A stretch of DNA of 27,931 nucleotides from K189A clade bacterium (lineage in GTDB: Bacteria; Pseudomonadota; Gammaproteobacteria; Pseudomonadales; Azotimanducaceae): assembly GCA_007571095.1 (NCBI GenBank), contig RKSB01000122.1:1-27931 (forward strand), read 5' to 3'. The first letter of the stretch is position 1; each line of letters begins with the position of its first letter. Both the position numbers and the translations under genes were made by a program. This document shows, one piece after another, positions 1-19,423 of this stretch. The notes beneath the pieces are model-generated. The model was given only the letters and a program-made list of their open reading frames with translations, made no database searches and was not told the origin of the DNA.

Positions 1-11
1 ATGATGGAATC

Positions 12-584: not shown

Positions 585-909
585 CCACCTGCTTGCGGAG
601 AGGCCTTTGCCTGACTGCCCGTTGGGGCTGTAGATCACCCAGAGCCCGCCCTGGTGGCGTACCAGGTCGGCCTTTTCGTCGCCTCCACTTCCGAAAGCCG
701 GGTACCGGCTGGCATGCAGGATTCGCTTCCGTAGTGACTTCGGCAGTGTCGAAGGCTGGCACTGAAGCGAGGTATCGCAGGGATCGCGCTGATGACGTTC
801 GATGGCATGGTGCGTCTTCCGGCAGTCGTTCGGCTATACTCCAGAGCAGGCTTCTGGCCTGGAACCGATGCAAATTTGGTGGCTTGCGAGATTTGCGGAG
901 GAACATCAA

Positions 910-2460: not shown

Positions 2461-2715
2461 CGGATTTTCGTGAGTGGGAACAAAGGCAAAGTGGCTGCGA
2501 TGAGTCTGTCCGAAAACGACTTTCCCGAGACACTAGTCCATTCACTGCTGGTCGAAGGCGGCCATGCGGCAGGCTTAAGCGACGGAATTCTGCGGAGTTC
2601 CTCTCCACCGACTTCTCCGCCGCCCAACACTCTGTCCAGAATCGCTCAAACTGATCCAGACCCTGGCTCAAACAGGGTGATCCCTCAAAGAACAGACAGG
2701 GACGGTCTTTGGTTG

Positions 2716-4487: not shown

Positions 4488-5573
4488 CTAATAAGAAAAC
4501 ATGCTCTTTGAGCGGGCGAGGTAGTACCGAAGAAGCCCCAGTACCGCCAGCATGCCACACGGAATCAAGCTGCTGACAAGAGGGTTGAGTTGCCAAAGCA
4601 GGCTGAATCCGGCGACAAGATGTGCTGTCAGAGCGCAGAATACACCAGTGCCTGCGCAGATCAAAAGCACTCCGCCCAGGTGCTCTCTTTGCGGTGTCGT
4701 CAGGACAAAAGCGGCACTCAGAAATATCATTCCGGCAATGGTCAGGGGAGAAAGGGCGCGCTGCCAGAACAGCAGGTGCGCCTGCCGATCCTCGGTATCT
4801 CTCTGAACGGCACTCCTGTGTCTGTTCCACAGTTCGCCGAGAGACAGGGTATGAACAGGCATCTCATATATTCTGCTTTCCAGATCGCTCACAGGTGGCT
4901 CCATTGTCTGGCTTTCCAGATAAAGGCTTTCGGCTTCATCCGATTCCAGCTGCTGTTTCATGACCTGTTCCAGCCGCCATTGTCCGTCCTCTTCAAAGGT
5001 CACCGAATTTGCTCTGGTCCATTTGCTCAGAGTGCCCTTGTCGCCCAGTTCGTAAATCACAAGATCGCCGGATCCGCCGCCTCGTTGAAGATCCGATATT
5101 CGAACAATCCTGTTTTTGTGTCGAAGCCAGAAGGCATCCTGATTGAGCAAACCGGCATGCAGGGTACGTTGTGCCTTGTAGAGTTCAGCATTCTGGTGCA
5201 AAGCGGGTGCTATCCACTGTTGAAGCAGAAAGACCATCAGGATCAGAGGCAGACTGCCGATGCCCACGGTGCCTGCAATATAGCCCAATCCTCTGCCGGA
5301 GGACATGATGCCGATAAGTTCGCTGTGCCGAACAAGCGAGCCGAGAGTCCAGAGAATTCCGAAGAGAGCAACGAAGGGAGCAACGCTTAAGAACTGGCGA
5401 GGCGTGGTCATCACGACGTACCAGACGGCATCCATGGTCTGGTAGGTGCCGACTCCTGTGTTGTTTAACTGTTCAATGAAGGTAAAGACATTGAAAAGCA
5501 GGCTGAAAGCGACCAGACAGAGTAGCTGCCCCTTGATGACTTCGCTGATTATGTAACCCGCCAGTACAGGCAT
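4488..5573 (-). CDS. lptG: LptG-family permease (YjgP/YjgQ family), probably a second, specialised paralogue
   Basis: Three N-terminal TM segments, LGSLVRHSELIGIMSSG motif, beta-rich periplasmic region (FWLRHKNRIVRI), three C-terminal TM segments; tandem with an lptF-like gene. Confidence 0.85.
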   Translation of the reverse strand: MPVLAGYIISEVIKGQLLCLVAFSLLFNVFTFIEQLNNTGVGTYQTMDAVWYVVMTTPRQFLSVAPFVALFGILWTLGSLVRHSELIGIMSSGRGLGYIAGTVGIGSLPLILMVFLLQQWIAPALHQNAELYKAQRTLHAGLLNQDAFWLRHKNRIVRISDLQRGGGSGDLVIYELGDKGTLSKWTRANSVTFEEDGQWRLEQVMKQQLESDEAESLYLESQTMEPPVSDLESRIYEMPVHTLSLGELWNRHRSAVQRDTEDRQAHLLFWQRALSPLTIAGMIFLSAAFVLTTPQREHLGGVLLICAGTGVFCALTAHLVAGFSLLWQLNPLVSSLIPCGMLAVLGLLRYYLARSKSMFSY

Positions 5574-5574
5574 A

Positions 5575-6666
5575 TCATCGACTCCTTAACCGACCGACCA
5601 GCAGCGGTCGCAGGTAGAGAAAGCCGGTTATTACTGCGAGCAGACAGGAGACCAGCCAGAGGCCGGGAAACCGGTTCAGATTACCCTGTTCGATCGAGTT
5701 CTGAGTAACGGATATCAGATAAAAGGTCACCGCATAGAGTGCGAGCCCGGAAAGTATTCTTATATTGGTACTTGAGCCTGGTTGGGCGCGACTCAGGGGA
5801 ACTGCCAGAACACACAGCAGAAAGCTGACAAGCGGCCAATTGAGTCGACTTTGCAACTCGGCGGCTTCCTTGTTGGACTCCCTGTTCAACAGGCTTGCGG
5901 TTGGAAGCGTCTTGCGTTTGTTGATGTTCAGCTGTCTGCGCAGGCCGTCTGTAGAGAAGTTCAGCTGATCGAAAACGCTCTCCCGATAAAACTGGCCATT
6001 CTCCCTGAGCCAGTAAATGGCCCCTGAATAAAGCTTGACATGGCTCTGCTCAATTGAACTCAAGGTCAGAATAGCTCTTTTTGCGGTAATAATTCTGGCT
6101 TCCTGAGGATCATCCATATAGAGAAAAATATCGGACATTTCCTTGGTTTCCTGATCAACGATACTCATTTCCTGAGTGCTGAGAACCCAGGAGTCTTCGC
6201 CGAGGGGCACAAAGGCACCCGAGTCCGACGGTGCAAACTCTATGCTCTGCAACAACCGCTCTTCAAGCTGATAAATCTTCTGGTAGGCCCAGGGCCTGAC
6301 CCACAAGGTCAAAGAGGCGGTCAACAGCATCAACACACTCGCCGCAAGTACGACCGGCTTGGCCAGCCGCCATTCGCTCCAGCCGAGGCACAGCATGACC
6401 GGAAGCTCGGAGTCGCGATACAGTCGATTGAGGCTCAGGACCACTCCAGAGTAAAAGGCACTCGCCAGCAGAATAGGGGCTGCAACCAGAAGGTTGTAAG
6501 CCAGTAGCTGCAACAGGGTAAAGGCCGAAGAATGACCCAGGGCGTTGGAGATTTCGTTGCCAAGAATGGCGGCCAGTGTGTAGCATAAGAAGATGACAAA
6601 CAGTATGGTCAGTGCTACTCCTGACGGCTTGATGGCCTGGCTCCATATATACTGGTCAACAACCAT
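5575..6666 (-). CDS. lptF: LptF-family permease (YjgP/YjgQ family), probably a second, specialised paralogue
   Basis: N-terminal MVVDQYI, LNRLYRDSELPVMLCLG motif, WVRPWA, AELQSRLNWPL..LAVPLS; 1-bp gap to lptG. Confidence 0.85.
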   Translation of the reverse strand: MVVDQYIWSQAIKPSGVALTILFVIFLCYTLAAILGNEISNALGHSSAFTLLQLLAYNLLVAAPILLASAFYSGVVLSLNRLYRDSELPVMLCLGWSEWRLAKPVVLAASVLMLLTASLTLWVRPWAYQKIYQLEERLLQSIEFAPSDSGAFVPLGEDSWVLSTQEMSIVDQETKEMSDIFLYMDDPQEARIITAKRAILTLSSIEQSHVKLYSGAIYWLRENGQFYRESVFDQLNFSTDGLRRQLNINKRKTLPTASLLNRESNKEAAELQSRLNWPLVSFLLCVLAVPLSRAQPGSSTNIRILSGLALYAVTFYLISVTQNSIEQGNLNRFPGLWLVSCLLAVITGFLYLRPLLVGRLRSR

Positions 6667-6765
6667 TTAGTAGAGGGTCGGTTACAGACACAACGACCCT
6701 TATTCTAGCCTTTGACCGAGAAGCTTGTGTCGGCATGGCGGTTTCTCTCTTTATGGTTTCTCTCT

Positions 6766-7872
6766 ATGGATTCCAGGTCTCCTGTTGTTTGGGTACTGCT
6801 CGGTGAAAAGCCGGGCGACAACAATCAGCTTGCCGTGCTGGCGGAAGATTTGGCCTGGCCTTACACAGCAGTGTCCCTGCGCTACAGAAGTTACGAACTC
6901 CTCACCAACCTGCTGCTTCGAAAAACCCTGCTTGGGCTGGCGGCCGGATCAGAACTTCAGATTCAGCCTCCCTGGCCTGACCTGATCCTGACTGCCGGCA
7001 GACGGAATGAACCCGTTGCGCGGTGGATCCAACAGCAGTCTCGACAGAGGACGAAGATAGTTCATCTGGGGCGTCCGTGGACACACCCCAGGCATCTTGA
7101 TCTGGTGGTGGTGTCTGGCCAATACCCTCGAGTACCCGCGTTACCCAATGTCATTCGCAACAGGCTTCCGCTCACTCGGTTTCCAGACGGCAAGCTGGCG
7201 GCGGCAAAAAAACGCTGGAAAAGACTGGAAGCCCTGCCATCCCCTCGCTATGCTCTGCTCATCGGCGGGCGCGACGGCGGTGCTCTGCTCGATAACAGGC
7301 GGGCGAAGGCTCTGCTGAAGGCAGCCAACAGCCTGGCTGAAGAGACAGCCGGCAGTTTGCTGATTACCACCAGTGCTCGAACACCCGCCGGCATCCAGAC
7401 ACTGTTTCCAGAGTGTATCAAGGTGCAGCATTCCACATTTTTCTGGGGTACTGAGGCACCCAACCCCTATTTCGCCTATCTCGCCTATGCAGATGAACTG
7501 ATCGTGACCGGAGACAGCATCTCCATGCTGGCTGATGCCTGTTTTACCGGCCGACCGGTGCATATTTTCAGTCTGCGCTCTGCGTTGCCAGAGGGCGAAG
7601 GAGAGCCTTGGTTCGCAAGATGTCAGCGCGGTGTTTTGTCGAGTCGGGCGATTCAGGATCGGATTGCCCGGCTGATCACACCCGCCCGTATGCACCGTGA
7701 TCTGGAGTCACTCCACCGCCACCTGATAAAAAGCGGTTCGGCGGTCTGGCTGGGCCAGAAGGCAGAGAAAAGCCACCGCCCTCTGTCGATGAGGCAAGAC
7801 CTGAAAAGGACATCGTCGGCGGTCAAGTCCCTGATGAGCCTGAACGACCAGGCACCTCCCCTGTTCGACTAG
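6766..7872 (+). CDS. ELM1-like (DUF1022) protein, predicted GT-B fold nucleotide-sugar-binding enzyme
   Basis: VWVLLGEKPGDNNQ, PWPDLILTAGRR, LLIGG, ITTSARTP, NPYFAYLAYADELIVTGDSISMLADA match the ELM1 family pattern. Alternative TTG start at 6712. Confidence 0.75.
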   Translation: MDSRSPVVWVLLGEKPGDNNQLAVLAEDLAWPYTAVSLRYRSYELLTNLLLRKTLLGLAAGSELQIQPPWPDLILTAGRRNEPVARWIQQQSRQRTKIVHLGRPWTHPRHLDLVVVSGQYPRVPALPNVIRNRLPLTRFPDGKLAAAKKRWKRLEALPSPRYALLIGGRDGGALLDNRRAKALLKAANSLAEETAGSLLITTSARTPAGIQTLFPECIKVQHSTFFWGTEAPNPYFAYLAYADELIVTGDSISMLADACFTGRPVHIFSLRSALPEGEGEPWFARCQRGVLSSRAIQDRIARLITPARMHRDLESLHRHLIKSGSAVWLGQKAEKSHRPLSMRQDLKRTSSAVKSLMSLNDQAPPLFD

Positions 7873-8819
7873 GCACTTCCCCTGCTGATAGACTTGAGCG
7901 GAAAACGAGGCCAGGCTTCCAGCGACTGAACGCTGGTCAGCAGTTTCGGAGCATCGTGGCGAATGTGATTGGCTGCCATTTCGGCTTCCAGTTCTTCGGC
8001 AGTGATGATGTTTCGCTCCATACATTCCTTGAGTAAGCCGAAGAAGAGTTGCTCCTGATTGGTATCGGGATGCTTTCTGTAGTGACCCAGAAAAGCGTAT
8101 TCGCCAAACAGCTTTCTCTTGAGAATCAACATCCAGCGAAGAGGCGGAAAGTAGCGGGAACGTTCCGCCAGACGCCAGTCTACCGGTAATCCGGTTTTCC
8201 ACGGCTGGGTGGCTCTTTTGGTGTTGTGCAGCATCTTGGTTGTGCTGCTCAGCCGGTCAAAATCATTCCACTCGTTTTCAAAGTGCCCAATGCTGTCTTC
8301 GTCTTCTTTCAGCAGGCAGATCCAGTCGTGGTAGTCGAGTTCACCCTTGAACATTGATTTGAAAGAGTCTTCGGCGTTCCAGTGCCGAAGCCGACTGTTG
8401 TCCAGCAGCATCACCGAGGTGGCTTTGCACCTGTGCTTCGAACTCAGAATGCTTCGAGAGCGCATTCGGCACAGAATGGCCTTGCCCTGCATATCCCTGT
8501 TCAGTAGCTGCCATATGTCATCGACGGCGAAAATATCCGGATCGATCACCACCGACCGGCCTTCGTAACCCATCAACTGGGGCGGCAGAAAGCGCAATGG
8601 AGTAAAGGATTGCAGGTCGTCGTACAGCCAGGTCCGCCAGACTCCATCACGCAGATAGTCTTTTCCGTCATGACTTTTGACCCAGTCATAGTCCTGAGTG
8701 CTGATGATTTTTACGGCAAAGCGGTCGGCGTGATTTGAATTCCTCTTCAGGGCATAGGCAGCTACTTTGGCACCCAGCATTTGCTTGGGATTGGTGTGTA
8801 TGAAGACGCAGTGATCCAT
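7869..8819 (-). CDS. GT-A-fold glycosyltransferase-like protein (GT8-like)
   Basis: SFTPLRFLPP followed by a DxD motif (VIDPDIF), TSVMLLDN and LHNT..TQPWK; GGAGG SD upstream of ATG 8819. Confidence 0.6.
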   Translation of the reverse strand: MDHCVFIHTNPKQMLGAKVAAYALKRNSNHADRFAVKIISTQDYDWVKSHDGKDYLRDGVWRTWLYDDLQSFTPLRFLPPQLMGYEGRSVVIDPDIFAVDDIWQLLNRDMQGKAILCRMRSRSILSSKHRCKATSVMLLDNSRLRHWNAEDSFKSMFKGELDYHDWICLLKEDEDSIGHFENEWNDFDRLSSTTKMLHNTKRATQPWKTGLPVDWRLAERSRYFPPLRWMLILKRKLFGEYAFLGHYRKHPDTNQEQLFFGLLKECMERNIITAEELEAEMAANHIRHDAPKLLTSVQSLEAWPRFPLKSISRGSA

Positions 8820-8935
8820 GAGGCCTCCAGAATAAGGGGAGTGTGGCAGCAGACAGACTTCAAAAAAGAATAGCACCTGCCTGCCTGTTCACCAAGTTTA
8901 CCCTGTTGCTGTACCTCTCTTTCTTTCAGCCTGCT

Positions 8936-9880
8936 TCAGCGGATAAGCTTCTTGCGCCAGAGTTTGAACAGAAAGCCCCACAGAAAAAGCCATGGCCATT
9001 TGTACACTCGACGGGGAATTTCAATCGGTTCACCACTGTGTCGCCCGATCTTGTAAGCCATATAGTCAAGGGCGTTATCGAAGGTAAAGACAGCCTTACC
9101 CAGCCTCAACAGGGAGAGCCACTTGCCGAGAAAGGCTCGAAGGCTCCATCGAACTTGCGATCTGATTCTGCTTGCAGGCTTCAGCATGCGATACCGGTCA
9201 GCGGACACTTTCTCCACTTTCTCGGGAATACTTTCAAGAAAGCTTTGGCCGGCAGCTGAAAAGTAGCTTTCGGATTGTCCGATCAGTTGGGTTACTCGTG
9301 CCTCCTTCTCAGGCCTCAGTTCGGCTCTGTAGCTGTATAACAGGGACTTGTGCCAGAGGTCGAGCGGGCTGAAAGTGGCTTCCATCAGCCCGAGCCCTTC
9401 GTTCAGCAGCCGACTGGTGGCGTCTGCCAGCATTTGATGAATACGGGCCATGTCTTCGGGTTTTTTGAGCCTTGCCAAAGCAACCGGCTGGGCCATTCGG
9501 CCGAAGATATGGCTGTGAAACCATTGGCGAGAACCGGCTTCCAGCTGCTGCATTGAAATGACAGCATACTTGCACCGAAACAGCCCGTCCGGTAGCTCCA
9601 GCTGACGAAAAAAGACATTCGGCGGCAACAGCCGCCCGACCAGCCTCAGGAGCTTTTTGTTGCTCCAGATACGGTCATAGCTTGAGACTATGACAAAAAA
9701 GTCCGCTATTCCGTCAACGACTTCCTCTTGCCACAGGCAGGAGCCATAAAACAAAACGGCTACCAGATCGTCTTCATAGTCTTTACAGACATCTTCCGCC
9801 AGTGCTCGAAGAGGCGCGACTATTCGGCCACTGGCTTCGAGCAAAGCCTGCTGTCGGAATTGGAACAGGTTGCGAGCCAT
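8936..9880 (-). CDS. Tam41/Mmp37-like phosphatidate cytidylyltransferase-fold nucleotidyltransferase
   Basis: Pol-beta-type NTase signature LFYGS...ADFFVIV, plus KYAV and GRMAQPV, which resemble Tam41 KYGV and GRLQKPV. Confidence 0.65.
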   Translation of the reverse strand: MARNLFQFRQQALLEASGRIVAPLRALAEDVCKDYEDDLVAVLFYGSCLWQEEVVDGIADFFVIVSSYDRIWSNKKLLRLVGRLLPPNVFFRQLELPDGLFRCKYAVISMQQLEAGSRQWFHSHIFGRMAQPVALARLKKPEDMARIHQMLADATSRLLNEGLGLMEATFSPLDLWHKSLLYSYRAELRPEKEARVTQLIGQSESYFSAAGQSFLESIPEKVEKVSADRYRMLKPASRIRSQVRWSLRAFLGKWLSLLRLGKAVFTFDNALDYMAYKIGRHSGEPIEIPRRVYKWPWLFLWGFLFKLWRKKLIR

Positions 9881-9886
9881 TCTGTG

Positions 9887-10828
9887 TCAAGTCAGCTTGA
9901 GAAACCCCAGAGGGCGGCTGCTGGATACCCTGACACCCTTTTCGGTGGTGCCAATCTCGCCGTCTATCACAAAATCTCCTGAAAACCCGAAGTGTGCATT
10001 TACAAAGGAGGTACTGTGGTAGTGCTCGGAGTTGGCCATCCATTTCGGTATTCGGTTGACCAGAATGGCCGTCAGGGCGGCCAACAGCTTTGGCGGCTGT
10101 TCGCCTATTTCTGTGTAGTAGATGGCTCCTCCTTCGGACCAGTGGTAGCGAAGACGAAAAAGCATTCTGTCCAGCGTGCTGGCTGCTATCACGCTACAGT
10201 TCAGCTGACGGGCGGGTCGGCCGTCCAGAATGACCTCGACAGGCAGGCCGCCGCCGGCGGTTCCTCTCAACATTCGGCCCAACAGCTTGAGGCCGCTCAG
10301 CATGCCGGCCCATTCCTGCCCGAGCCGAATAGCCTTGTCCTTGTTTTCGAAGTTGCGGACGGCTTCAGTGGTTACGCCTATGGCGAATACAAAACCAAAA
10401 CGGTCAGGCATACCGGTTGCCTCAATGCGCAACAGGCTGCGCCGTCGAACGGGCCAGGTGTTCGCTGGTCGAGCCGTTATCGCCTGAAGTCGGAAAAGAG
10501 ATCGCTCGGCACTCAGAAAGCCGTGCAGGTCGAGTGCCGACAGGTTGGTTGAACCAAAAGGCAGCAGGGCGATCATCGGCAAAGGGGAGTCCTCCTGCTG
10601 TTGAGACAACAGGGCGGTCAACACCGTGTGAACAGTGCCGTCACCGCCCGCAATGACCAGCAGTCGGTCGGCATCTGTGCTCAGTTTCGGCAACAGGCTG
10701 GTGAGTTCCTCTGCATGCGTGGTTTCGTGGTAGCCACTCGTCGCCAGCTTTTGCAGTGCCTTCCTGTGTCTGTTTCGGTATTTCCGCCCCTTTCCGCTGG
10801 CCGGGTTGACGATGCATTGAATCTTCAA
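9887..10828 (-). CDS. Diacylglycerol/sphingosine kinase family lipid kinase (candidate ceramide kinase)
   Basis: IVNPASG, IAGGDGT, LLPFGSTN and C-terminal IDGE motifs. Probable TTG start at 10828; the ORF-track extension to 11032 overlaps the divergent gene. Confidence 0.85.
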   Translation of the reverse strand: MKIQCIVNPASGKGRKYRNRHRKALQKLATSGYHETTHAEELTSLLPKLSTDADRLLVIAGGDGTVHTVLTALLSQQQEDSPLPMIALLPFGSTNLSALDLHGFLSAERSLFRLQAITARPANTWPVRRRSLLRIEATGMPDRFGFVFAIGVTTEAVRNFENKDKAIRLGQEWAGMLSGLKLLGRMLRGTAGGGLPVEVILDGRPARQLNCSVIAASTLDRMLFRLRYHWSEGGAIYYTEIGEQPPKLLAALTAILVNRIPKWMANSEHYHSTSFVNAHFGFSGDFVIDGEIGTTEKGVRVSSSRPLGFLKLT

Positions 10829-10861
10829 TGTGCTGAAATGTTTTCGCCGATCACCGCTTTC

Positions 10862-10867
10862 ATTATA
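10862..10867 (-). promoter_or_regulatory. Possible sigma70 -10 box for the kinase operon
   Basis: Perfect TATAAT on the minus strand ~35 bp upstream of the kinase start; no properly spaced -35 box seen. Confidence 0.3.
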
Positions 10868-10994
10868 TGCCCGCCCGGCATGAACAAGAGCTTTCGACGG
10901 TATTCTGGCGGTATCATTGATGCTTGTTCGGCCAGCATATAGACTCAAGTACCTCAGCGTCGAATGAAGCATGCCGAATGGAGAAAGAGTCCGA

Positions 10995-12002
10995 ATGAAC
11001 ACCGGCACAGCAAACCAGCCATTTCGGTTCACACATATTTCTGATCTTCATCTGACGAATCCGAAGGCTGCCCTGAAAAGCCTCTGGATGATTTGCAACA
11101 AGAGAGTGCTGGGCTATCTTTCCTGGCAATACAGACGTCGATTTCTTCATAGCCCCAGCGTCCTTGAAACGGTTGCCCGAGCAGCCTGTTCGGACGGCGA
11201 TCATCTGGTAATTACGGGTGATTTGACTCAAATAGGCCTGCCGGAAGAGTATCGACAGACTTGTCAGTGGCTGTCCCGACTGGGTTCGCCGGCCAACATT
11301 TCGGTTATTCCCGGCAATCACGATGCCTACGCCGGTTCATCCTGGCGAGAGTGCATTCAGTCGTGGAAACCGCACATGTCGGATCGAATGCCTGAGCAGC
11401 AAGACCAGCCTTTGTGGCCCTTTGTCAGGCTTCGAGGTCCGGTTGCATTCATCGGCGTGTCGAGTGCCGTGCCGTCTCCTCCTTTTTTTGCTTCCGGTCG
11501 AGTAGGGCAGGACCAACTGCAAAGACTCGAACAAATGCTCGCCGACCATCAGTCTCGGTTTCGCGTTCTGCTGATTCACCATTCGCCTGTTGCCGGCCAT
11601 GATTCTTTCAGAAAAAGGCTCTTTCAGCGGTCGTCTCTGGTCAGGATTTTGCAGGCCAGAGGCGTCGAGATGGTGTTGCACGGCCACAACCACAGGCCCT
11701 GCTGGAACGAATTGAAAACCGCTTCCGGCTACATTCCGGTGATAGGTGTGCCGGCTGCTTCGGCTGCGGAGTCAGGTCCCGACGAGGCTTCGTTGAGCCG
11801 GCGAGGGAGCTACTATGCCTACCAGGTCGCCCAAACCGACGAAGGCTGGTGTCTGGAAGTGACTGCACACCGGCTGAATGCCGAAGGGACGGCGATGGAT
11901 CTTGTCTGGTGCAGACGTTACGGTCGCCTGCCGGCCTTGTCGATTAACTCCTGGATCATCTCCCAGTCGGCCAGGCTGTCTACATCGACGGCCGCCAGTT
12001 GA
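10995..12002 (+). CDS. Calcineurin-like metallophosphoesterase (CpdA/Icc-like)
   Basis: All five motifs present: ISDLH, TGDLT, PGNHD, LIHH, LHGHNH. Confidence 0.9.
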   Translation: MNTGTANQPFRFTHISDLHLTNPKAALKSLWMICNKRVLGYLSWQYRRRFLHSPSVLETVARAACSDGDHLVITGDLTQIGLPEEYRQTCQWLSRLGSPANISVIPGNHDAYAGSSWRECIQSWKPHMSDRMPEQQDQPLWPFVRLRGPVAFIGVSSAVPSPPFFASGRVGQDQLQRLEQMLADHQSRFRVLLIHHSPVAGHDSFRKRLFQRSSLVRILQARGVEMVLHGHNHRPCWNELKTASGYIPVIGVPAASAAESGPDEASLSRRGSYYAYQVAQTDEGWCLEVTAHRLNAEGTAMDLVWCRRYGRLPALSINSWIISQSARLSTSTAAS

Positions 12003-12700
12003 TCGGGAATCAGGATCGGCTTGACTCGACAGCCTGTATAGCGGGATGCTCCCGTAAAAATATCCTGTAGCGAAGACCGGCCCATAGCAAACTTCAGCAA
12101 CGGCCACCAGCCTATGGCCGAGACGATTCGTAATGGCCTTTTTCGGTGCTGCTGAATTTCCCCCCATTTGTTTACCGCCTGAAGTGCCTCCGGTGTCATC
12201 AGGGCGAACAGGTTGCAGCTGCTGTAATCGCCATCGGTGCAACGATAGGAGGTTCGATTGCAGGCGATAGACGGATTTGCCTTTTTGTCGAGCCTGACCA
12301 TTCCGACGGTGCAATCGGCATCGCTTGCCAGAGACGAATTGCGAAAAGTGTCTACCCAGTCTCTCTGCAACAACGCAGAGTCGCCGGTGGTCACCAGTAG
12401 CGGCGACTCCAGCCCCAGCCTGTCAATGCCTTTGGCGACACTTGACGGCAGGGATTTTTCACCCTCTATCCAGATTGAATCGGGCAGCTGCTCAAAGTCC
12501 TTGTGTCGTCTGAGCAGGTGAATATTGCCGATGATCCTGATTCGAGACAACCACGGCAGGCTTTCCAGTGTGTCATACACTCTTCGCAGCATGGATTTGT
12601 CGCCGATCTGTGCAAGGGCTTTGGTGGCCACCTGAGCCCGCACGGCAACCGCATCCTGAGCCGTTCTCCTGCCGGCGAGTATCAGTGCGTTCCAGGTCAT
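11918..12700 (-). CDS. MobA-like NTP transferase (nucleotidyltransferase), 260 aa
   Basis: ALILAGRR at the N-terminus, KAL..IGDKSML, LLVTTGD, C-terminal DVDSLAD. ATG 12700 overlaps the upstream TGA (ATGA), indicating translational coupling. Confidence 0.8.
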   Translation of the reverse strand: MTWNALILAGRRTAQDAVAVRAQVATKALAQIGDKSMLRRVYDTLESLPWLSRIRIIGNIHLLRRHKDFEQLPDSIWIEGEKSLPSSVAKGIDRLGLESPLLVTTGDSALLQRDWVDTFRNSSLASDADCTVGMVRLDKKANPSIACNRTSYRCTDGDYSSCNLFALMTPEALQAVNKWGEIQQHRKRPLRIVSAIGWWPLLKFAMGRSSLQDIFTGASRYTGCRVKPILIPDQLAAVDVDSLADWEMIQELIDKAGRRP

Positions 12701-13890
12701 TGGCGAGACTCGGGTTGCAGTAGTTTTCGATACATTCGATAAGTCTTGTGTACTCTGCCGTTCGTCATCTTTACAGCGGACGAGCCTGCCTGGCGATTGC
12801 TCTTCAGTATCCAGGACATTTCGACACTGTGCATACGTCTTTGTCGGGCGTGCATGAAGATCGCCGAAAGCAACGCCTGAATTGCATGGGTACCGAGTGG
12901 AGTTTTGTGAAACTTTTTTCTGATACCCATCAGCGGCAGGCGACCCGTTTGAATAGCATTGGTGCCGAGGCACCAGAGCAGTTTCAGCCACCCCAGCGGC
13001 AACAGCCGACTCTTCAATTTATGCAGGACCTCGTTGAGATTGGGAACCAGCATCGCAAAGCCGACCGCTTCGGATTCGTATTCGGCGATTTGAATCAACT
13101 CCGCCTTGCCCAGCAGACGTACCTTTTGAAGGTTTTCCCTGAGTTCTTTTTCGCCGAAGGGTACAAATCCCCAGTTTTCGCTCCATGCATCGTCAAAGAT
13201 GCCCTTTATTGTTCGATTTTCGTCGGCCAGCCGGCTGTAGTTGATTGGGCGTACAACCAGATTCTCGTGCCTGTATCCAGACCTTCTGTTGAATACTGCG
13301 AGCATTCGTTTTTTGGACTCTTCCAGCCTTTTCAGGGCGAGTTCGGTTTCAGCGATAAAGGCCAGTGCTTCGGCGGCGGTTTCGTAGCCACAGGCCTCAA
13401 CTCTGGGAGCAAACCAGGGAGCTGTGTGTGGAGTCATCAGGTAAGGAGGAGACTCAAAACCTTCCACCAGCAGTCCGATCTCCTGATTGATATTCAGGTT
13501 CATGGGCCCGACAATCTCCTTTATGCCTCGCTCTGCCAGCCAGGACTCAGCCGTTTTCAGCAAAACCCTGAAGGTTTCCTGATTGTCTTCGGCTTCAAGT
13601 AGCCCGAAGTAGCCGCGATTTCTGTTTTGGCTCTTTTCCAGGTCGTCAATCTGTGCAGAAATTCTGCCGACCGGACATCCGCCCCTGTAAGCGATCCAGG
13701 CCTGCCATCGACCGTGTTCGAAAAAGGGATTTCGTCTGGAAAAAGCCAGCCACCTTTCCCAGTAGAGCCTGGGTACCCAGTGAGGATCGTTAAGGTAGAA
13801 CTGACCTGCAAGCTGAATGAAAACCTTGCGATGTGCCGAGTTTGATACCGCCTGAATGGCAACTTCTGACTCCGGTATCGGATGAATCAT
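12697..13890 (-). CDS. bcerS: GNAT-fold N-acyltransferase, bacterial ceramide synthase (bCerS)/YghO family
   Basis: Y..DPHWVP, NPFF, GRISAQID, GYFG, GPMNLNINQEIGLLVEGF, FDDAWSENWGFVP, EMSWIL and KTYRMY are typical of this family; genomic context agrees. Confidence 0.75.
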   Translation of the reverse strand: MIHPIPESEVAIQAVSNSAHRKVFIQLAGQFYLNDPHWVPRLYWERWLAFSRRNPFFEHGRWQAWIAYRGGCPVGRISAQIDDLEKSQNRNRGYFGLLEAEDNQETFRVLLKTAESWLAERGIKEIVGPMNLNINQEIGLLVEGFESPPYLMTPHTAPWFAPRVEACGYETAAEALAFIAETELALKRLEESKKRMLAVFNRRSGYRHENLVVRPINYSRLADENRTIKGIFDDAWSENWGFVPFGEKELRENLQKVRLLGKAELIQIAEYESEAVGFAMLVPNLNEVLHKLKSRLLPLGWLKLLWCLGTNAIQTGRLPLMGIRKKFHKTPLGTHAIQALLSAIFMHARQRRMHSVEMSWILKSNRQAGSSAVKMTNGRVHKTYRMYRKLLQPESRQ

Positions 13891-14386
13891 GCTCAAGGTT
13901 TTTTTGCATAAGGCACCAGGAAGGGCCTACTCCGGCCATTTATAACAGTTTTTGCCTGTTTCCGCCTGAAAAAAACCTGCCCGAACCGACAATAGCCCGC
14001 TTTTGCTTCTCAAGAATTCTGATTGGATCCTTGCCACAGTTTGTTTGATGACTCAGGGCAAAGGGTTTCCGAAGAATCTGTTTGTCGAGTCGCTGGCGGA
14101 ACCTTCCACTCAAAAAATTCGCAGAACAGACTCGCTCCTGAGCAAATACCTAACAAAATATGGAATATTTAAGAAACTATTGAGAAATTATTTTGATGTG
14201 CTAAAATATCTGCTGAAATTCGCACCCTCCTGCCGAAGAAATTCTCTGAAAATACAGGGATAATTGAAAGTTAGCAGAAGCAGGTTATAGGAAGGCTGCA
14301 GGAGGAAGGTCCTGCGGAAATAAAGAATCAGGAAGCAAGAGATTACAGAAAGCAACGGAGAAGTTTTGAGTTTTGGAGGTGAAGCT

Positions 14387-14449
14387 ATGCCCGGCCAATT
14401 CGGCGACACTTCAGTGTTTTTTTGTGGCAGGTCTTGCTTCTCCTGTTAA
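14387..14449 (+). CDS. Possible 20-aa small ORF (MPGQFGDTSVFFCGRSCFSC)
   Basis: Strong SD GGAGGTG at 14375-14381, 5 nt before ATG; no homology evidence. Confidence 0.25.
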   Translation: MPGQFGDTSVFFCGRSCFSC

Positions 14450-14463
14450 TTAACGGCTATAAT
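14434..14463 (+). promoter_or_regulatory. Putative sigma70 promoter for the acyl-AMP ligase/reductase operon
   Basis: TTGCTT (14434-14439)-N18-TATAAT (14458-14463), ~140 bp upstream of ATG 14604. Confidence 0.55.
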
Positions 14464-14603
14464 TGCAGGATTAATCTCTTGAATGGGGGATTGACCTGAG
14501 GAAATCCTCGGTGAAGGCCGCCTCAACGAAAGTGGGCTGAGGGGTCTTGACCGGAGTATTCTGACTGCTACGCCGAGTGGCAGCAGTTCGGGGGCAAAGA
14601 ACA

Positions 14604-16433
14604 ATGACAAGTCGAACGAGTATAGACGACGACGGATTGAACAATTCCGAAGGGCTGGCCCCCTTGCATCTCGATGATGCGAGTACAAAGCCAGAATTGC
14701 TGGTTCCAACACCCACTCTGAGTGGCATACCTCTTCGTCTCGGCGGCTTCAAAACCCTGTCCGAAGCACTCGACTATGCGGCCGAAGGCGAGGCCGGTTT
14801 CAACTTCTACAATGGTCGGCACGGTGCACTCAGCGACGTGCTCAGCTACAAGAAGATCAGGACCGAAGCCCTGTCAGTAGCCCGCAAGATGAGAGCCTTT
14901 GACCTGCCTCGCGGAAGCAGGGTCGCCATCATCGCCGACACCAAGCCCGAATTTGTCATCTTCTTTATGGCCTGCCAGTACGTGGGGCTGATACCCGTCC
15001 CGTTGCCTGCCGCCGTCAACTTTAACGGACGAGAAGCCTTCATCTATCAGACGAGGCTGTTTGTGCAGGATTGTGAAGCCAAAATCTGCCTCGCCTCAGA
15101 CGAATTCGTCAAGTATCTGGCCGAGGCCTGCGTCGGCCTCAAGCTGGCCTTTCAAGGTGCCTGCCGAGACTTCTATGACCTGCCTGAAGACCCGAGGCCA
15201 CTGGAACCCACCAGTCCAAAGGAAAACGCTTATATCCAGTACACCTCAGGTAGCACAAATTTTCCAAGGGGAGTGATTATAGAGTCGGGTTCTGCGATGT
15301 CCAATCTGTCCAGAATTCTACAAGACGGAATTCAGGTGAGGGTTCCGGATCGTTGTTTTTCCTGGTTGCCTTTCTATCACGACATGGGCTTGGTGGGCAA
15401 AATGATGTCAACGCTGGTCGGGCAGGGCAGCATTGACTGCCTCGACAATCGGAAATTTGCCATTCGTCCAAACATCTGGCTCAAGCTGATGAGCGAAAAC
15501 AAATCGACCATCTCTTTCAGCCCGCCTTTTGGCTACGAGCTTTGTCTGCGCCGACTGCACCCGGAACAGGCTGAACAGTACGATCTGTCGCACTGGCGTA
15601 TAGCGGGTGTAGGTGCTGAGATGATTCGAAGCTCGATACTGAATCGCTTTGCCGAAGCTCTGGAGCCGGCAGGCTTTAGAAAGGAAGCCTTCACACCCTG
15701 TTATGGCATGGCCGAAAGTTCGGTTGCGGTGACCTTCTCGAAGCTTGGCAAGGTGTTTGATACCGACAGCATAGACCGTGAAAAGAGTGCTACCGAGGGA
15801 ATGGCTGTTCAGGGCCCTGCCGAGGATGCAGGTACTCGAACTTTTGTTGCCTGCGGATACCCGCTGCCCGATCACGAGATTCAAATTCGGGACGCCGACC
15901 ATCGCCCCTTGTCGGCCCGCCACATAGGCAGGGTTTTTGTTCGAGGTCCCAGCATTATGTCGGGGTACCTCAACAAGCCTGAATTGACCAGTGAGGTTTT
16001 GGTCGACGGTTGGCTGGATACGGGTGATCTTGGTTACTGTACCGAGGATGGTCAGCTGTTCATAGTCGGTCGTGGCAAGGACATGATCATCATCAACGGT
16101 CGCAACATCTGGCCACAGGATCTGGAGTATACCGCCGAGGCTCAGCCGAGTGTCCGCTCAGGGGACGCTCTGGCCTTTGGCTTGTCTGACAACGGCGAAG
16201 ATTCGGAAAAGGCGGTTATTGTTATCCAGACTCGAGAGAAGGATGCAGAAAAACGTCAGAACCTGATCCGGTCGATCAAGCAAACAATCTTTGAGCACTC
16301 GGGTATTCAGTGTCACGTCAAGCTTGTACCCGCTCACACTCTGCCTCGAACCTCTTCCGGCAAGCTGTCTCGCTCAAAGGCTCGCTTCAATTTCATTCAG
16401 TCTAACGACGGTGCCGAAGTAGCAAACGGCTAA
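14604..16433 (+). CDS. Fatty acyl-AMP ligase / acyl-ACP synthetase (FAAL)
   Basis: YIQYTSGST, SWLPFYHDMGL, CYGMAE followed by a FAAL-type insertion, DTGDLG, GRGKDMIIINGRNIWPQDLE, PRTSSGK. Alternative GTG start at 14577. Confidence 0.9.
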   Translation: MTSRTSIDDDGLNNSEGLAPLHLDDASTKPELLVPTPTLSGIPLRLGGFKTLSEALDYAAEGEAGFNFYNGRHGALSDVLSYKKIRTEALSVARKMRAFDLPRGSRVAIIADTKPEFVIFFMACQYVGLIPVPLPAAVNFNGREAFIYQTRLFVQDCEAKICLASDEFVKYLAEACVGLKLAFQGACRDFYDLPEDPRPLEPTSPKENAYIQYTSGSTNFPRGVIIESGSAMSNLSRILQDGIQVRVPDRCFSWLPFYHDMGLVGKMMSTLVGQGSIDCLDNRKFAIRPNIWLKLMSENKSTISFSPPFGYELCLRRLHPEQAEQYDLSHWRIAGVGAEMIRSSILNRFAEALEPAGFRKEAFTPCYGMAESSVAVTFSKLGKVFDTDSIDREKSATEGMAVQGPAEDAGTRTFVACGYPLPDHEIQIRDADHRPLSARHIGRVFVRGPSIMSGYLNKPELTSEVLVDGWLDTGDLGYCTEDGQLFIVGRGKDMIIINGRNIWPQDLEYTAEAQPSVRSGDALAFGLSDNGEDSEKAVIVIQTREKDAEKRQNLIRSIKQTIFEHSGIQCHVKLVPAHTLPRTSSGKLSRSKARFNFIQSNDGAEVANG

Positions 16434-16538
16434 AGGCTGTCCGCCGCTTCCTGACAACGGCGTGAGCCTTCGCAAGCTCCTTTTTCGAGACGACTTCCTG
16501 CTTGTTGTCCGAAGTTCTTTTCTGTTTGCGGTTTTTTC

Positions 16539-17462
16539 GTGCAGCCTCGCCTGACGGTTGCCGTTACCGGTGCTACGGGATTCATAGGTCGCCACCTGAT
16601 TGCGGCACTTTCGGCGGCTGAATATCGAGTCAAGGCTCTGACTCGTCATCGCCGTCCGCCTGATTTACCAGTAGAGTGGGTTCGGGGCGACCTTGGCCAG
16701 CCGACCAGCCTGATGCAACTGGTTGAGGGCACCGATTACGTGATCCATTGCGCAGGCCAGGTTCGAGGCCTGCTTTACCGGCATTTTGCCGAGACCAATG
16801 TCGCCGGTTGCCGAAATCTGGTGCAGGCTGTCTCTCAATGCTCTTTCCGGCCTTGCCTGCTGATGATCTCCAGTCTGGCCGCCCGGTCTCCGGAATTGTC
16901 TGCCTATGCCGCCAGCAAGCGCGACGGAGAAGTTTTTTTGCAGAAGGCGACCGATCTGAACTGGACGATTTTTCGGCCAACCGCAGTCTATGGCTCCGGT
17001 GACTCCGAGCTAATGCCTCTGTTTAACGCCGTTGCCCGAGGTCTGATTCCCCGAATTCGACACGATGGCAGGCTCTCTCTGCTTTATGTTGAGGATCTGG
17101 TGGCTGCAATCACGGCCTGGTTGTGTTCTCCACAACAGGCTTTCGGTAAAATTTACGAGCTTTCTGATGGCCGATGCAATGGCTATAGCCTGGATGAAAT
17201 CATTGCCCTCATTCTGCGACTCAAGCAACCTGTTCGAGTGCCTGTTCCTCTGCCCAAAAACCTGTTGCTGGGAGTGGCCAGAGTAAACGCTGCTCTGGCC
17301 TCTGTTGTCGGTTACTCGCCCATGCTGACACCGGGCAAGCTTCGGGAAATGTGGCATCCAGACTGGACTTGTTCTTCCGATGGCGGTTCGGATTTTGGCT
17401 GGTCGCCCGAGTATCAGCTTGAGAAGGGCCTGAGTGCCGCCTGGTCGAACGAGTCGTCCTGA
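16539..17462 (+). CDS. NAD(P)-dependent epimerase/reductase (extended SDR); ceramide reductase CerR-like by context
   Basis: TGATGFIG Rossmann motif, ISSLAA, YAASK (YxxxK), RPTAVYG. The family call is strong; the CerR assignment is contextual. Confidence 0.8.
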   Translation: MQPRLTVAVTGATGFIGRHLIAALSAAEYRVKALTRHRRPPDLPVEWVRGDLGQPTSLMQLVEGTDYVIHCAGQVRGLLYRHFAETNVAGCRNLVQAVSQCSFRPCLLMISSLAARSPELSAYAASKRDGEVFLQKATDLNWTIFRPTAVYGSGDSELMPLFNAVARGLIPRIRHDGRLSLLYVEDLVAAITAWLCSPQQAFGKIYELSDGRCNGYSLDEIIALILRLKQPVRVPVPLPKNLLLGVARVNAALASVVGYSPMLTPGKLREMWHPDWTCSSDGGSDFGWSPEYQLEKGLSAAWSNESS

Positions 17463-17550
17463 TTTAAGGCCTTGAAAAGCTCAAGGATATCTTTTTCAAA
17501 AGGCAACTGCCGCAAAAAACGGCGAGACTGTGTGCAGGAGAGGGGCAGTT

Positions 17551-17973
17551 TCAGTCGTCGATCAGGGCGGTCGCAGTGCCTCTGAGCACTTCCTGGTCTT
17601 TCTGGTTGACGGTGACCACGGAAAGGTTGACCAGCAGTTCACCCTCTTCCTGAAGTATTTCCTCCACGGTAGCGGTCGCGGTGAGCGTGTCGCCCGGCCA
17701 TACCTGGCTGGTAAAGCGAACTCCGTACTTTCTCAGTCGTCCGTCTCCTACGTAATCGGTCAGCATTTTCGCAGTCATACCCATGGTCAGCATGCCGTGT
17801 GCGAAGACCGAAGGGTATCGGGCCACCTGTGTGGCGAAAACCTCATCCGTGTGGATTGGGTTGTAATCGCCCGAAGCCCCTGCGTACTGCACGAGCTGAG
17901 TACGTTTCAGGTCTTTGACCAGCTCCTGCGTGCAGGTGTCGCCTGTTTTTAATTCGCTTGCTTTTAATGCCAT
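17551..17973 (-). CDS. MaoC-family (R)-enoyl-CoA hydratase/dehydratase
   Basis: YAGASGDYNPIHTD hydratase motif, AHGMLT, VRFTSQVWPGDTL. Confidence 0.9.
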   Translation of the reverse strand: MALKASELKTGDTCTQELVKDLKRTQLVQYAGASGDYNPIHTDEVFATQVARYPSVFAHGMLTMGMTAKMLTDYVGDGRLRKYGVRFTSQVWPGDTLTATATVEEILQEEGELLVNLSVVTVNQKDQEVLRGTATALIDD

Positions 17974-17979
17974 GGTTGC

Positions 17980-18486
17980 CTACTTCTGTTCAATGGTTTT
18001 TTCGGTGACTACTCCGACCATGCGAGCGGTTACCACCAGTTCGCCCTTCTGGTCTCTGTATTCGGTAATGCTTTCGCTGAACCTTAACGTACCTGCCCGC
18101 CTGGATTCCTTGGACCATTTTTTGCCGGGTCGATTGGTTGCGGTCAGCACATCACCCGCTTGAGGGTGTCGGTGATATTCAAAATGCTGCTCGGCATGCA
18201 ACATTCCACTGCTCGCTCCACCGCCTGCTCCGCCCGATCCTTTTTTTCGCTCGATACCGCTGGGTTTTCCGCCGGAACCAAACCAGGGTTCGCCGATTTT
18301 TGGGCGCAGGGGATAGTTGGGGTCGAATTGCGCACTCGCCTGGACGAATGTTGGTGGTGCAATCACAGCCTGAGGCTCGGTGTCGGCGGCATAGTCTGCG
18401 TCAGAGTAAATCCGGTTGGGATCCCCCACCGCTCTTGCAAAGGTCATGATGTGTCCCGCTTCAACGGGGAATTTTATATTCGACAT
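17980..18486 (-). CDS. MaoC-like hot-dog dehydratase partner subunit (MaoC_dehydrat_N/FAS1-like)
   Basis: FARAVGDPN, APPTF, LHAEQHFEYHR..AGDVL. Confidence 0.8.
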   Translation of the reverse strand: MSNIKFPVEAGHIMTFARAVGDPNRIYSDADYAADTEPQAVIAPPTFVQASAQFDPNYPLRPKIGEPWFGSGGKPSGIERKKGSGGAGGGASSGMLHAEQHFEYHRHPQAGDVLTATNRPGKKWSKESRRAGTLRFSESITEYRDQKGELVVTARMVGVVTEKTIEQK

Positions 18487-18579
18487 GAACAAACATTCCT
18501 GTAATTTTCATTCACTTGATGGCCCGATCTTTTTCAAAGTCAGCACTTAAACCCTGTGTACTCTATCAAAACCGGAAGA

Positions 18580-19344: not shown

Positions 19345-19423
19345 TAACAAGCCCTCAGGAAGGAGATTATTTGTTCCGCCTTAGTGTACATCATTAGCAA
19401 CTGCCATTAATAACCGCCAATAA

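Follow-up and report, generated by a model that had tools for sequence, protein, structure and literature searches.

Can a bacterial gene cluster of the ceramide type work without its own serine palmitoyltransferase (Spt) and acyl carrier protein (ACP)? The question is raised by an entire 27.9-kb contig, C26, taken from a fragmented sponge-metagenome MAG (224 contigs, 92% complete, contamination estimate 0.08%) and referred to here, at its full length, as the window. A first-pass annotation described a ceramide-type cluster at 12697-17550, an identification that proved correct, and offered three accounts of the missing genes: a split of spt and acp to another place in the genome, scavenging of sphingoid bases, or synthesis of an amide lipid not derived from serine. 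Here, we report that acpR-spt and aasR-cerR were, with a probability of roughly 85%, parted by an ordinary rearrangement typical of this lineage, with the pathway complete and acpR and spt supplied by a second contig of the assembly, C155. We base this reading on gene identities, orthology, and gene layouts, from which we infer the enzyme activities and the lipid.

Ceramide genes of the window

The GNAT-like, FAAL, reductase, and MaoC genes of the first-pass annotation were all recovered with Pfam and NCBIfam, and the segment 12697-17550 probably carries three of the five genes of a Caulobacter-type dihydroceramide pathway, namely cerS (bCerS), aasR, and cerR. The product of cerS (12697..13896, minus strand; a 399-aa ORF with a likely ATG start at 13890) matches the GNAT family weakly (Acetyltransf_1, E 1.5e-4; no single stretch passes alone). 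Over its full length it is 38-43% identical to the gene adjoining aasR-cerR in family relatives, where it lies beside aasR or a MobA-like gene, and its residues 11-394 align at 38% identity (E 3e-79) with the product of a Caulobacter sp. BE264 gene located ~7 kb downstream of spt, at the position of CC_1154. Similarity and cluster position together point to a bCerS-type ceramide synthase orthologous to CC_1154. An AT-rich divergent intergenic region (13897..14604) separates it from aasR (14577..16433, plus strand; likely ATG start 14605). The aasR product has an AMP-binding Pfam match, exceeds the cut-off of the NCBIfam FAAL model NF006624 (731 bits against 600), and is 44% identical (E 1e-152) to the Caulobacter gene upstream of cerR-acpR-spt; as a FAAL-type enzyme orthologous to the gene that heads aasR-cerR-acpR-spt, it is a predicted AasR-type fatty acyl-AMP ligase/acyl-ACP synthetase (CC_1165 ortholog).

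The reductase gene cerR (16539..17462, plus strand) begins 105 bp further on, a gap that our re-measurement left unchanged. Its product, which has Epimerase (E 5e-23) and NAD_binding Pfam matches, shares 36-37% identity (E 1e-37) with the gene that separates aasR from acpR in Caulobacter and 40-49% with orthologs in the family, so that by epimerase/SDR type and position it would be a CerR-type NAD(P)-dependent reductase (CC_1164 ortholog). It does converge, as annotated, on a HadB-like and HadA-like MaoC dehydratase pair (17551..18492, minus strand; Pfam MaoC_dehydratas and FAS1_DH_region), the stop-to-stop distance being 88 bp; the NCBIfam HadB-like match of the MaoC/HadB-like gene (17551-17973, minus strand) falls below cut-off. 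This MaoC/HadAB-like pair and a FabG-like SDR were considered as cluster members and rejected: in the regions of relatives that were examined, no homolog of either adjoins cerR, and both are therefore treated as neighbours.

The remainder of the cluster lies to the left. An MsbA/PglK-like ABC exporter (2716..4461, minus strand; Pfam ABC_membrane and ABC_tran, all NCBIfam matches under their equivalog cut-offs) is conserved in relatives beside lptFG and Elm1-acpR-spt. Next to it is an LptF/LptG-type pair (4488..6666, minus strand; CC_1155/1156 type, Pfam LptF_LptG), the only one that a PF03739 search found in this genome, followed by an Elm1-like gene (PF06258; 6712..7872, plus strand; Mito_fiss_Elm1, E 2e-54), paralogous to the Elm1 gene of C155, with 36% identity between the products. 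A conserved 335-aa protein of no assigned family (7869..8876, minus strand; no Pfam or NCBIfam match) reaches 59-60% identity within the clusters of relatives G007 and G016, the highest of all cluster genes. Candidate head-group genes complete the set: a Tam41-like nucleotidyltransferase (8936..9880, minus strand; Pfam Tam41_Mmp37) with 31% identity to a Caulobacter gene downstream of spt, placed in the CC_1161 family as assigned in PMC11324152, S1 Text; a DAGK_cat lipid kinase of the CC_1160 ceramide-kinase type (9887..11032, minus strand), 26-29% identical to the Caulobacter gene at that position; a calcineurin-like phosphoesterase of the CC_1158 type (10971..12002, plus strand; Pfam Metallophos), 41% identical to a Caulobacter cluster gene; and a MobA-like NTP transferase of the CC_1153 type (11918..12991, minus strand; Pfam NTP_transf_3), which adjoins cerS in relatives. 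The longest ORF of the last overlaps cerS, so its true start is probably further downstream.

Neither Spt nor ACP is encoded here, as had been claimed. Six-frame HMM searches of the whole genome returned no alpha-oxoamine synthase or other Aminotran_1_2 match (PF00155, E<=0.001) and zero PP-binding matches (PF00550, E<=0.1) in the window, and a sensitive tblastn search of it with the ACP and Spt of this genome as queries gave nothing better than E 0.25. Relics of ACP or Spt were likewise not found anywhere in the window. The 700-bp spacer between cerS and aasR, read directly, is free of gene relics; it has a single promoter-like site (14180-14207) and an 86-aa ORF with no Pfam match and no ACP or Spt similarity. 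Rfam families across the window numbered zero. The annotated Caulobacter order of synthetase, cerR, acp, and spt as consecutive genes was recovered in the two loci fetched (FAAL, CerR, ACP, Spt).

An acpR-spt pair on a second contig

A whole-genome search for Spt, set apart from BioF and Kbl by phylogeny as the first-pass annotation had proposed, found both missing genes side by side on C155, a 2.7-kb contig on which an Elm1-like gene is divergent from acpR-spt. The first is a 79-aa ACP (C155 1231-1470; PP-binding PF00550, 30.4 bits against a cut-off of 20.8). It shares a conserved serine and an ED.FDI motif with Caulobacter AcpR; its small size, PP-binding domain, conserved serine, and location directly upstream of spt identify it as a predicted AcpR-type ACP. 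The second, starting 2 bp after the ACP, encodes a 400-aa Aminotran_1_2 protein (C155 1473-2675) that passes the NCBIfam serine palmitoyltransferase equivalog NF047599 (563.4 bits, cut-off 500) and stays below the cut-offs for BioF (321/426), Kbl (314/460), and ALAS (247/339). Its best PDB matches are bacterial Spt (397 bits), ahead of Kbl (232), ALAS (193), and BioF (186). In a maximum-likelihood tree of alpha-oxoamine synthases covering Spt, Kbl, and BioF, it falls inside a clade of 15 Spt that includes Caulobacter, and a 100/100 branch parts this clade from six Kbl and four BioF paralogs of relatives. K246 (in the PLP lysine motif GTFSKS), H139, D212, H215, and R369 are invariant among 11 orthologs and align with the solved Spt 2x8u; these positions are presumably the catalytic residues of S. 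paucimobilis Spt. Taken together, these sequence features identify a predicted bacterial serine palmitoyltransferase. The genome search turned up no other alpha-oxoamine synthase, the remaining PF00155 matches being two HisC, an alanine aminotransferase, PatB, GlyA, and AspAT.

Thus, the genome as assembled does hold an Spt and a dedicated ACP, on a contig assigned to it by binning only. Of the accounts proposed earlier, the split to another site is the one borne out, the pair sitting together on C155 of the same assembly; scavenging and a non-serine lipid lose ground to the same finding, since a genuine spt-acp pair elsewhere had been named as what would refute them. With a known-type ceramide pathway complete and its first two genes on another contig, neither is needed. 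By analogy with Caulobacter work, AasR would put a fatty acid on AcpR, Spt would condense acyl-AcpR with serine to 3-oxosphinganine, bCerS would N-acylate this product, and CerR would reduce the 3-oxo group. The neighbouring kinase, Tam41-like and MobA-like enzymes, and phosphoesterase may then add a phospho head group, and the ABC exporter and LptF/G pair may export the lipid.

Layouts in relatives and the origin of the separation

Of the 35 family genomes in which a cerR ortholog was found, 34 also carry one of Spt. Among these 34 Spt-carrying genomes, cerR is adjacent in 16, lies 8 kb to 1.44 Mb from spt on the same contig in nine, is on another contig in eight, and was not found at the cut-off in one; the distance of 1.44 Mb comes from a complete genome, and complete genomes of the family include examples of a relocated Elm1-acpR-spt module. 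An ACP is directly upstream of Spt in all ten relatives' loci examined, six of which have the divergent Elm1/acpR-spt layout without aasR-cerR beside it. The same arrangement without adjoining aasR-cerR was seen in ~13 of 80 named loci, including that of the best match (58% identity), and the closest Spt relatives share this module, usually beside an ABC exporter. In this gammaproteobacterial family acpR-spt is thus commonly an Elm1-linked module apart from aasR-cerR, and searches for sphingolipid producers that need four consecutive genes would mislabel such genomes.

The window retains a trace of such a module. Placing Logan unitigs from three sponge runs on C155 (all short, one extending ~1 kb past its left end) brought to light an exact 35-mer common to the window and C155 141-175, and with it a 190-bp relic of a C155-type Elm1-like gene (2514..2700, plus strand). 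The relic preserves ~47 terminal codons and the 3' spacer and is located 3' of the gene for the ABC exporter. A blastn alignment of 193 nt pairs it with the reverse complement of C155 12-201 at 81% identity (E 8e-45); by tblastn, 30 of 40 residues are identical to C155 Elm1 residues 314-353 (E 9e-8). Relatives have at this position an Elm1 gene that converges on the ABC gene and is itself followed by acpR-spt. The breakpoint is immediately preceded, on its upstream side, by an AAA_21/OLD-like ATPase gene (802..2460, plus strand; Pfam AAA_21 and AAA_15), a candidate anti-phage gene that matches PADLOC HEC-04 over its full length (E 7e-44). The decayed Elm1 3' end suggests that the module was duplicated or relocated and its original copy destroyed. 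Because the relic is just 81% identical to C155, the resident copy at the ancestral site is gone; either this genome has another copy, on C155, or, with lower probability, C155 comes from a close relative that retains the ancestral layout.

The remaining doubt concerns the correct binning of this short contig, tied to the genome by binning alone. Were C155 mis-binned from a related organism of the same sponge that kept the ancestral ABC-Elm1-acpR-spt order, the window organism would lack Spt and AcpR and only acylate, decorate, and export sphingoid bases taken from the host or neighbours. Such a reading fits the small size of C155 (2.7 kb), for which no end overlap of at least 15 nt was found with C26 or any other contig, and the deletion of the ancestral-site copy that the relic records; in addition, the 51 bp past the C155 Elm1 stop are homologous to the spacer before the window's ABC gene, as would be expected of a sister's orthologous locus, and unitig depths in run X1 are somewhat unequal (~5.5-6.8 for C155 against 8.8 for the single window-derived unitig seen). 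However, the bin's contamination estimate is 0.08% with no other cluster gene duplicated, both contigs are present in the same sponge-metagenome runs with a similar strain-level divergence in run X2 (~98% for each), and composition agrees (GC3 0.56-0.58 for both, tetranucleotide profile of C155 typical). Retention of a full-length, intact aasR also argues against scavenging, and equally against a non-serine lipid, as the sole described role of AasR is loading AcpR for Spt (PMC11324152, S1 Text). Together with the near-universal Spt of cerR-bearing relatives (34/35) and the relocated modules of complete genomes, this makes mis-binning improbable. Exact-protein look-ups of the C155 Spt and the window ATPase in public assemblies gave no record.

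A somewhat better case, though still an unlikely one, can be made for no true separation at all, with C155 just past the left end of the window, the break a mere assembly gap, and the cluster contiguous. The nearest relatives have Elm1-acpR-spt adjoining the ABC exporter, the window's ABC gene is 2.7 kb from the left end, and the assembly graph branches at the shared 35-mer. Window positions 3-37 weakly resemble an Elm1 tail (aligned locally, they score 26 with the relic and 22 with the C155 tail; shuffling, applied only to the latter pair, peaked at 23); being at or slightly above the shuffle range, the similarity of these first 37 bases was not relied on. A third Elm1 paralog, on C10, was rejected as the left neighbour, as it is a complete gene internal to its own contig. 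Against a gap stand the missing end overlap and the relic, ATPase gene, and 193-aa ORF on the contig-end side of the ABC gene, which place the module away from its ancestral position; even with C155 nearby, acpR-spt would be >14 kb from aasR-cerR, leaving both the observation and its ordinary explanation intact. It is very improbable that the C155 enzyme uses another amino acid for a sulfonolipid-type or glycine-derived amide lipid. Homologous cysteate acyltransferases and Kbl do appear among its PDB matches, but it exceeds the Spt equivalog cut-off only, groups with Caulobacter Spt, scores 397 bits with solved Spt against 225 with cysteate-C-fatty acyltransferase, and lies behind AcpR as in characterised systems. 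Relocation of a lineage-typical module within a complete pathway accounts best for these data.

Envelope genes and comparison with known systems

A separate observation concerns lipopolysaccharide. LpxA, LpxB, LpxC, LpxK, and WaaA were not found in this genome, while LptD is present. Two related genera, one represented by two complete genomes, are also without LpxA, LpxB, LpxC, and WaaA, and their only LptF/G is the cluster's own pair. LpxC is present in 73 of 81 family genomes, which implies a loss independent of, and more recent than, that in Sphingomonas. We lean slightly towards the view that this reduced-genome sponge organism and the two genera lost lipid A/LPS and that the cluster's sphingolipid, exported via the ABC transporter, LptF/G, and LptD, forms the outer leaflet of the outer membrane, as an independent Sphingomonas-like replacement of LPS within Gammaproteobacteria. 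In the literature available to us, no account was found of Gammaproteobacteria or sponge symbionts that have sphingolipids and lack LPS. If true, the loss would mean that the Sphingomonas-type envelope also occurs in a second proteobacterial class and in an animal symbiont, and it could outweigh the spt finding in importance.

In Sphingomonas (e.g., S. wittichii), LPS is likewise absent and the sole LptFG pair lies in the sphingolipid locus (preprint 10.64898/2026.04.12.717747), matching the arrangement here of LptF/G only in the cluster, missing LPS genes, and LptD present; Sphingomonas is an alphaproteobacterium, whereas the lineage described here comes from a sponge and is probably gammaproteobacterial. 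The ceramide phosphoglycerate cluster of Caulobacter crescentus (CC_1152-CC_1168) follows the same pathway logic, with window orthologs of aasR, cerR, cerS, CC_1160, CC_1161, CC_1158, CC_1153, and LptF/G and C155 orthologs of acpR and spt. There, acpR-spt is located between cerR and CC_1161, whereas here it is set apart and grouped with an Elm1-like gene; the place of the Wzx-like CC_1166 is taken by an MsbA-like ABC exporter, several Elm1-like genes and the conserved 335-aa protein are added, and no PF01066-type CC_1159, CC_1152, or lptC2 was recognised in the window. Scattering of ceramide genes has been described before, over three regions in Nitrosomonas eutropha and 6-10 in Sphingomonadales (PMC11324152), where ceramide and head-group genes are likewise spread over more than one region and the pathway is complete. 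N. eutropha keeps aasR-cerR-acpR-spt together (Neut_0458-0461); here, in contrast, the series is interrupted between cerR and acpR, and an Elm1-like gene accompanies acpR-spt.

Gene content of the window and an acpR-spt pair on contig C155

The window is the longest contig (C26) of a metagenome-assembled genome (MAG) of 224 contigs and 1.68 Mb, with an estimated completeness of 92% and contamination of 0.08%, whose DNA is present in sponge-metagenome runs. Mapped with Pfam and NCBIfam, it carries first an AAA_21/OLD-like ATPase (802-2460, + strand; Pfam), an MsbA-like ABC exporter (2716-4461, -), two LptF/LptG genes (4488-6666, -) and an Elm1-like gene (PF06258; 6712-7872, +). These are followed by a conserved 335-aa protein matching neither database (7869-8876, -), a Tam41-like nucleotidyltransferase (8936-9880, -), a DAGK_cat lipid kinase (9887-11032, -), a calcineurin-like phosphoesterase (10971-12002, +), a MobA-like NTP transferase (11918-12991, -) and a GNAT-like 399-aa protein (12697-13896, -). 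Further along are a fatty acyl-AMP ligase (FAAL; 14577-16433, +), a reductase of the NAD-epimerase type (16539-17462, +) and a HadAB-like MaoC pair with a FabG-like SDR (17551-19350, -), with ygfZ and then rpoE-rseABC-degP-lepA in the right part, beyond 19350. Among the cluster genes, that for the 335-aa protein, which usually adjoins an Elm1-like gene, has the highest identity to relatives (59-60% in G007 and G016). At its right end the window shares 43 identical bases with the beginning of contig C121 (3,090 bp), which probably follows it in the genome, downstream of lepA.

The first-pass annotation had found no alpha-oxoamine synthase and no acyl carrier protein (ACP) in the window, and this was borne out: six-frame HMM searches of the whole genome gave no Aminotran_1_2 or PP-binding match on C26, and a sensitive tblastn search of the window with the ACP and Spt (serine palmitoyltransferase) of this genome found nothing. 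The 105-bp spacing between FAAL and reductase that the annotation described was likewise confirmed, as was the convergence of the reductase on MaoC, across an 88-bp junction. The annotation had offered three explanations: spt and acp lying elsewhere in the genome, scavenging of sphingoid bases, or synthesis of an amide lipid not derived from serine.

A contig of the same MAG, C155 (2,701 bp), bears three genes: an Elm1-like gene (52-1119, -), an ACP of 79 aa (1231-1470, +) and, directly behind it, an alpha-oxoamine synthase of 400 aa (1473-2675, +). The synthase scores 563 bits on the NCBIfam serine palmitoyltransferase equivalog NF047599 (cut-off 500) and falls under the BioF, Kbl and ALAS cut-offs; among solved structures it matches bacterial Spt best (397 bits), ahead of Kbl (232), ALAS (193) and BioF (186). 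The lysine of its GTFSKS motif is conserved in all 11 orthologs aligned, as are other residues. In a maximum-likelihood tree with Kbl and BioF paralogs of relatives, labelled by NCBIfam, it lies inside an Spt clade that includes Caulobacter and is parted from Kbl and BioF by a branch supported at 100/100. By every sequence test applied, it is thus classed as a serine palmitoyltransferase. The remaining PF00155 matches in the whole genome are two HisC proteins, an alanine aminotransferase, PatB, GlyA and AspAT, none of them alpha-oxoamine synthases, and the C155 enzyme is therefore the only alpha-oxoamine synthase found in the genome. Like Caulobacter AcpR, the ACP of Spt, the C155 ACP has the conserved serine and an ED.FDI motif; the sole other ACP match, on contig C140, is a stronger PP-binding hit and is probably the housekeeping AcpP. 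An acpR-spt pair elsewhere in the genome supports the first of the three explanations and speaks against both scavenging and a non-serine amide lipid.

No BioF, Kbl or ALAS was found in this 92%-complete genome, which at 1.68 Mb is smaller than those of the other family members (2.1-5.6 Mb). These two features fit a reduced, host-associated genome, and the organism is possibly a biotin auxotroph.

Provenance of C155 and an Elm1 relic beside the ABC exporter

It is conceivable that C155 was mis-binned and comes from a related organism, a reading we consider improbable. The contig is small and its ends overlap no other contig; in sponge run X1, probably the source sample, its unitigs have a depth of 5.5-6.8, compared with 8.8 for the one unitig derived from the window. 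Bin contamination, however, is near zero, no other cluster gene has a second copy in the bin, and C155 and a segment of the window occur in the same runs of one study, both appearing in run X2 as ~98%-identical variants. In GC3, the C155 genes (0.56-0.58) match aasR (the FAAL, or acyl-ACP synthetase, gene), cerR (reductase) and cerS (the GNAT-like ceramide synthase); the tetranucleotide profile of C155 is typical of the bin's small contigs, a likeness to be read with the caveat that binning itself uses such features. The window also keeps an intact aasR, and the only described role of AasR is to acylate AcpR for Spt (PMC11324152). Exact-protein look-ups of the C155 Spt and the window ATPase in public assemblies found nothing.

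When sponge-run unitigs were aligned on C155, the assembly graph branched at a 35-nt word also present in the window. Window positions 2514-2700 (+) match the reverse complement of C155 12-201 with 81% identity over 193 nt (E 8e-45), the C155 stretch comprising the last ~47 codons of the Elm1 gene and the adjoining 3' spacer; the translated sequences are identical at 30 of 40 residues. Homology between the 3' flank of the C155 Elm1 gene and this window spacer is what an orthologous locus in a sister organism would show, a point in favour of mis-binning. The relic converges on the ABC exporter gene, from whose stop it is ~50 bp away, and sits at the very place where the nearest relatives have an intact Elm1 gene and then acpR-spt. 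Homology to C155 ends at ~2514, 53 bp past the stop of the AAA_21 ATPase (802-2460), for which PADLOC gave a full-length match to its candidate defence family HEC-04 (E 7e-44).

Taking C155 as part of this genome, we propose that an Elm1-acpR-spt module once adjoined the ABC gene and that a copy of it, Elm1 tail and spacer included, ended up at another site. Loss of the first copy, of which only the terminal 190 bp survive, would have come afterwards and been linked to the segment with the defence gene. The ATPase and a 193-aa ORF upstream of it (3-2460) occupy the place of the sphingolipid module in relatives and may have been inserted there. This 193-aa ORF has no family match and runs off the contig start. 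The relic is still in frame inside a 125-aa ORF (2470-2847) that overlaps the opposite-strand ABC gene.

Gene order in relatives

Separation of acpR-spt from aasR-cerR is typical of the lineage, and such gene order is widespread in the family. In each of the ten relatives with an Spt ortholog (48-57% identity), drawn from the family or the order, the gene immediately upstream of spt encodes an ACP; four of them have aasR-cerR-acpR-spt, and six have Elm1 divergent from acpR-spt with no adjoining aasR-cerR. As in the window, cerS adjoins aasR-cerR in G007 and G011. The distance from spt to aasR-cerR is 15-27 kb in G016 and G007, and reaches 1.44 Mb in the complete 3.0-Mb genome of G011. Of the 34 family genomes in which Spt was found, 16 have cerR next to spt; in 9 it lies 8 kb to 1.44 Mb away on the same contig, in 8 it is on another contig, and in one it was not found at the cut-off. 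The nearest Spt relatives (56-58% identity) all have a non-adjacent cerR.

Related clusters do not, as a rule, lack spt, a question the first-pass annotation had raised: 34 of 35 genomes with a cerR ortholog carry an Spt ortholog. The one exception, G087, is a 360-contig assembly whose best alpha-oxoamine synthase match is 26% identical to Spt, and the absence is probably an assembly gap; it is the single candidate for a truly spt-less cluster in the family sample.

The canonical four-gene order prevails among 80 named loci compared from GTDB species representatives; ~13 of them, the best match (58%) and MAGs with the labels Thiohalobacter and Thiogranum included, show lptF-lptG-ABC, an opposite-strand Elm1 and then acpR-spt. 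Scattered sphingolipid genes have already been reported in N. eutropha and Sphingomonadales (PMC11324152), and the window cluster together with C155 is a known kind of system. The genome holds three Elm1-like (PF06258) paralogs (window 6712-7872, C155 52-1119 and contig C10 1700-2971), and up to five occur in one sphingolipid cluster among relatives (G007); one paralog is consistently paired with acpR-spt. As a guess, Elm1-like proteins might act in head-group tailoring.

Likeness to the Caulobacter and Sphingomonas systems

Protein matches place the window cluster in the Caulobacter type, and its initial description as ceramide-type was correct. Two Caulobacter loci have the order FAAL, CerR, ACP, Spt, Tam41-like protein, kinase and phosphoesterase, which agrees with the consecutive arrangement of the first four that the first-pass annotation gave for that genus. 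Identity to the Caulobacter counterparts is 44% for the FAAL (E 1e-152), 36% for the reductase (E 1e-37), 31% for the Tam41-like protein, 26-29% for the kinase and 41% for the phosphoesterase. In Caulobacter sp. BE264, the GNAT-like protein matches a gene located ~7 kb downstream from spt (38%, E 3e-79), where cerS (CC_1154) would stand. Genes described by Olea-Ozuna et al. (PMC11324152) are aasR (CC_1165), cerR (CC_1164), acpR (CC_1163), spt (CC_1162), cerS (CC_1154), the ceramide kinase CC_1160, head-group genes CC_1161, CC_1158 and CC_1153, and lptF2/lptG2.

The cluster pair (4488-6666) comprises the only LptF/LptG genes found in the genome. LptD is present; LpxC, LpxB, LpxK, the LpxA C-terminal domain and WaaA gave no match there (one 21-bit WaaA hit fell below the cut-off), nor did tblastn with a relative's LpxC find anything. 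LpxA, LpxB, LpxC and WaaA were also not found in G011 and G063, complete single-contig genomes of one genus, or in G016, of another; in all three, the LptF/G genes number just two, and in G016 these form part of the sphingolipid cluster. In G066, from the genus of G016 and searched for LpxB, LpxC and LptF/G, LpxB and LpxC are missing and there are again only two LptF/G genes. G007 has Lpx genes and four LptF/G genes, a canonical pair and a cluster pair. LpxC occurs in 73 of 81 family genomes and in all five named genomes with the Elm1-acpR-spt layout.

The same pattern has been described for Sphingomonas (2026 preprint, 10.64898/2026.04.12.717747); no report of LPS loss of this type in Gammaproteobacteria or sponge symbionts was found in the literature searched. 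That the organism belongs to the Gammaproteobacteria is inferred from its rpoE-rseABC-degP-lepA gene context and from how the nearest loci are labelled. The gene inventories suggest that this probably gammaproteobacterial lineage has lost LPS in the manner of Sphingomonas: as far as its genes tell, this organism resembles Sphingomonas both in lacking LPS genes and in having LptF/G only in the sphingolipid locus.
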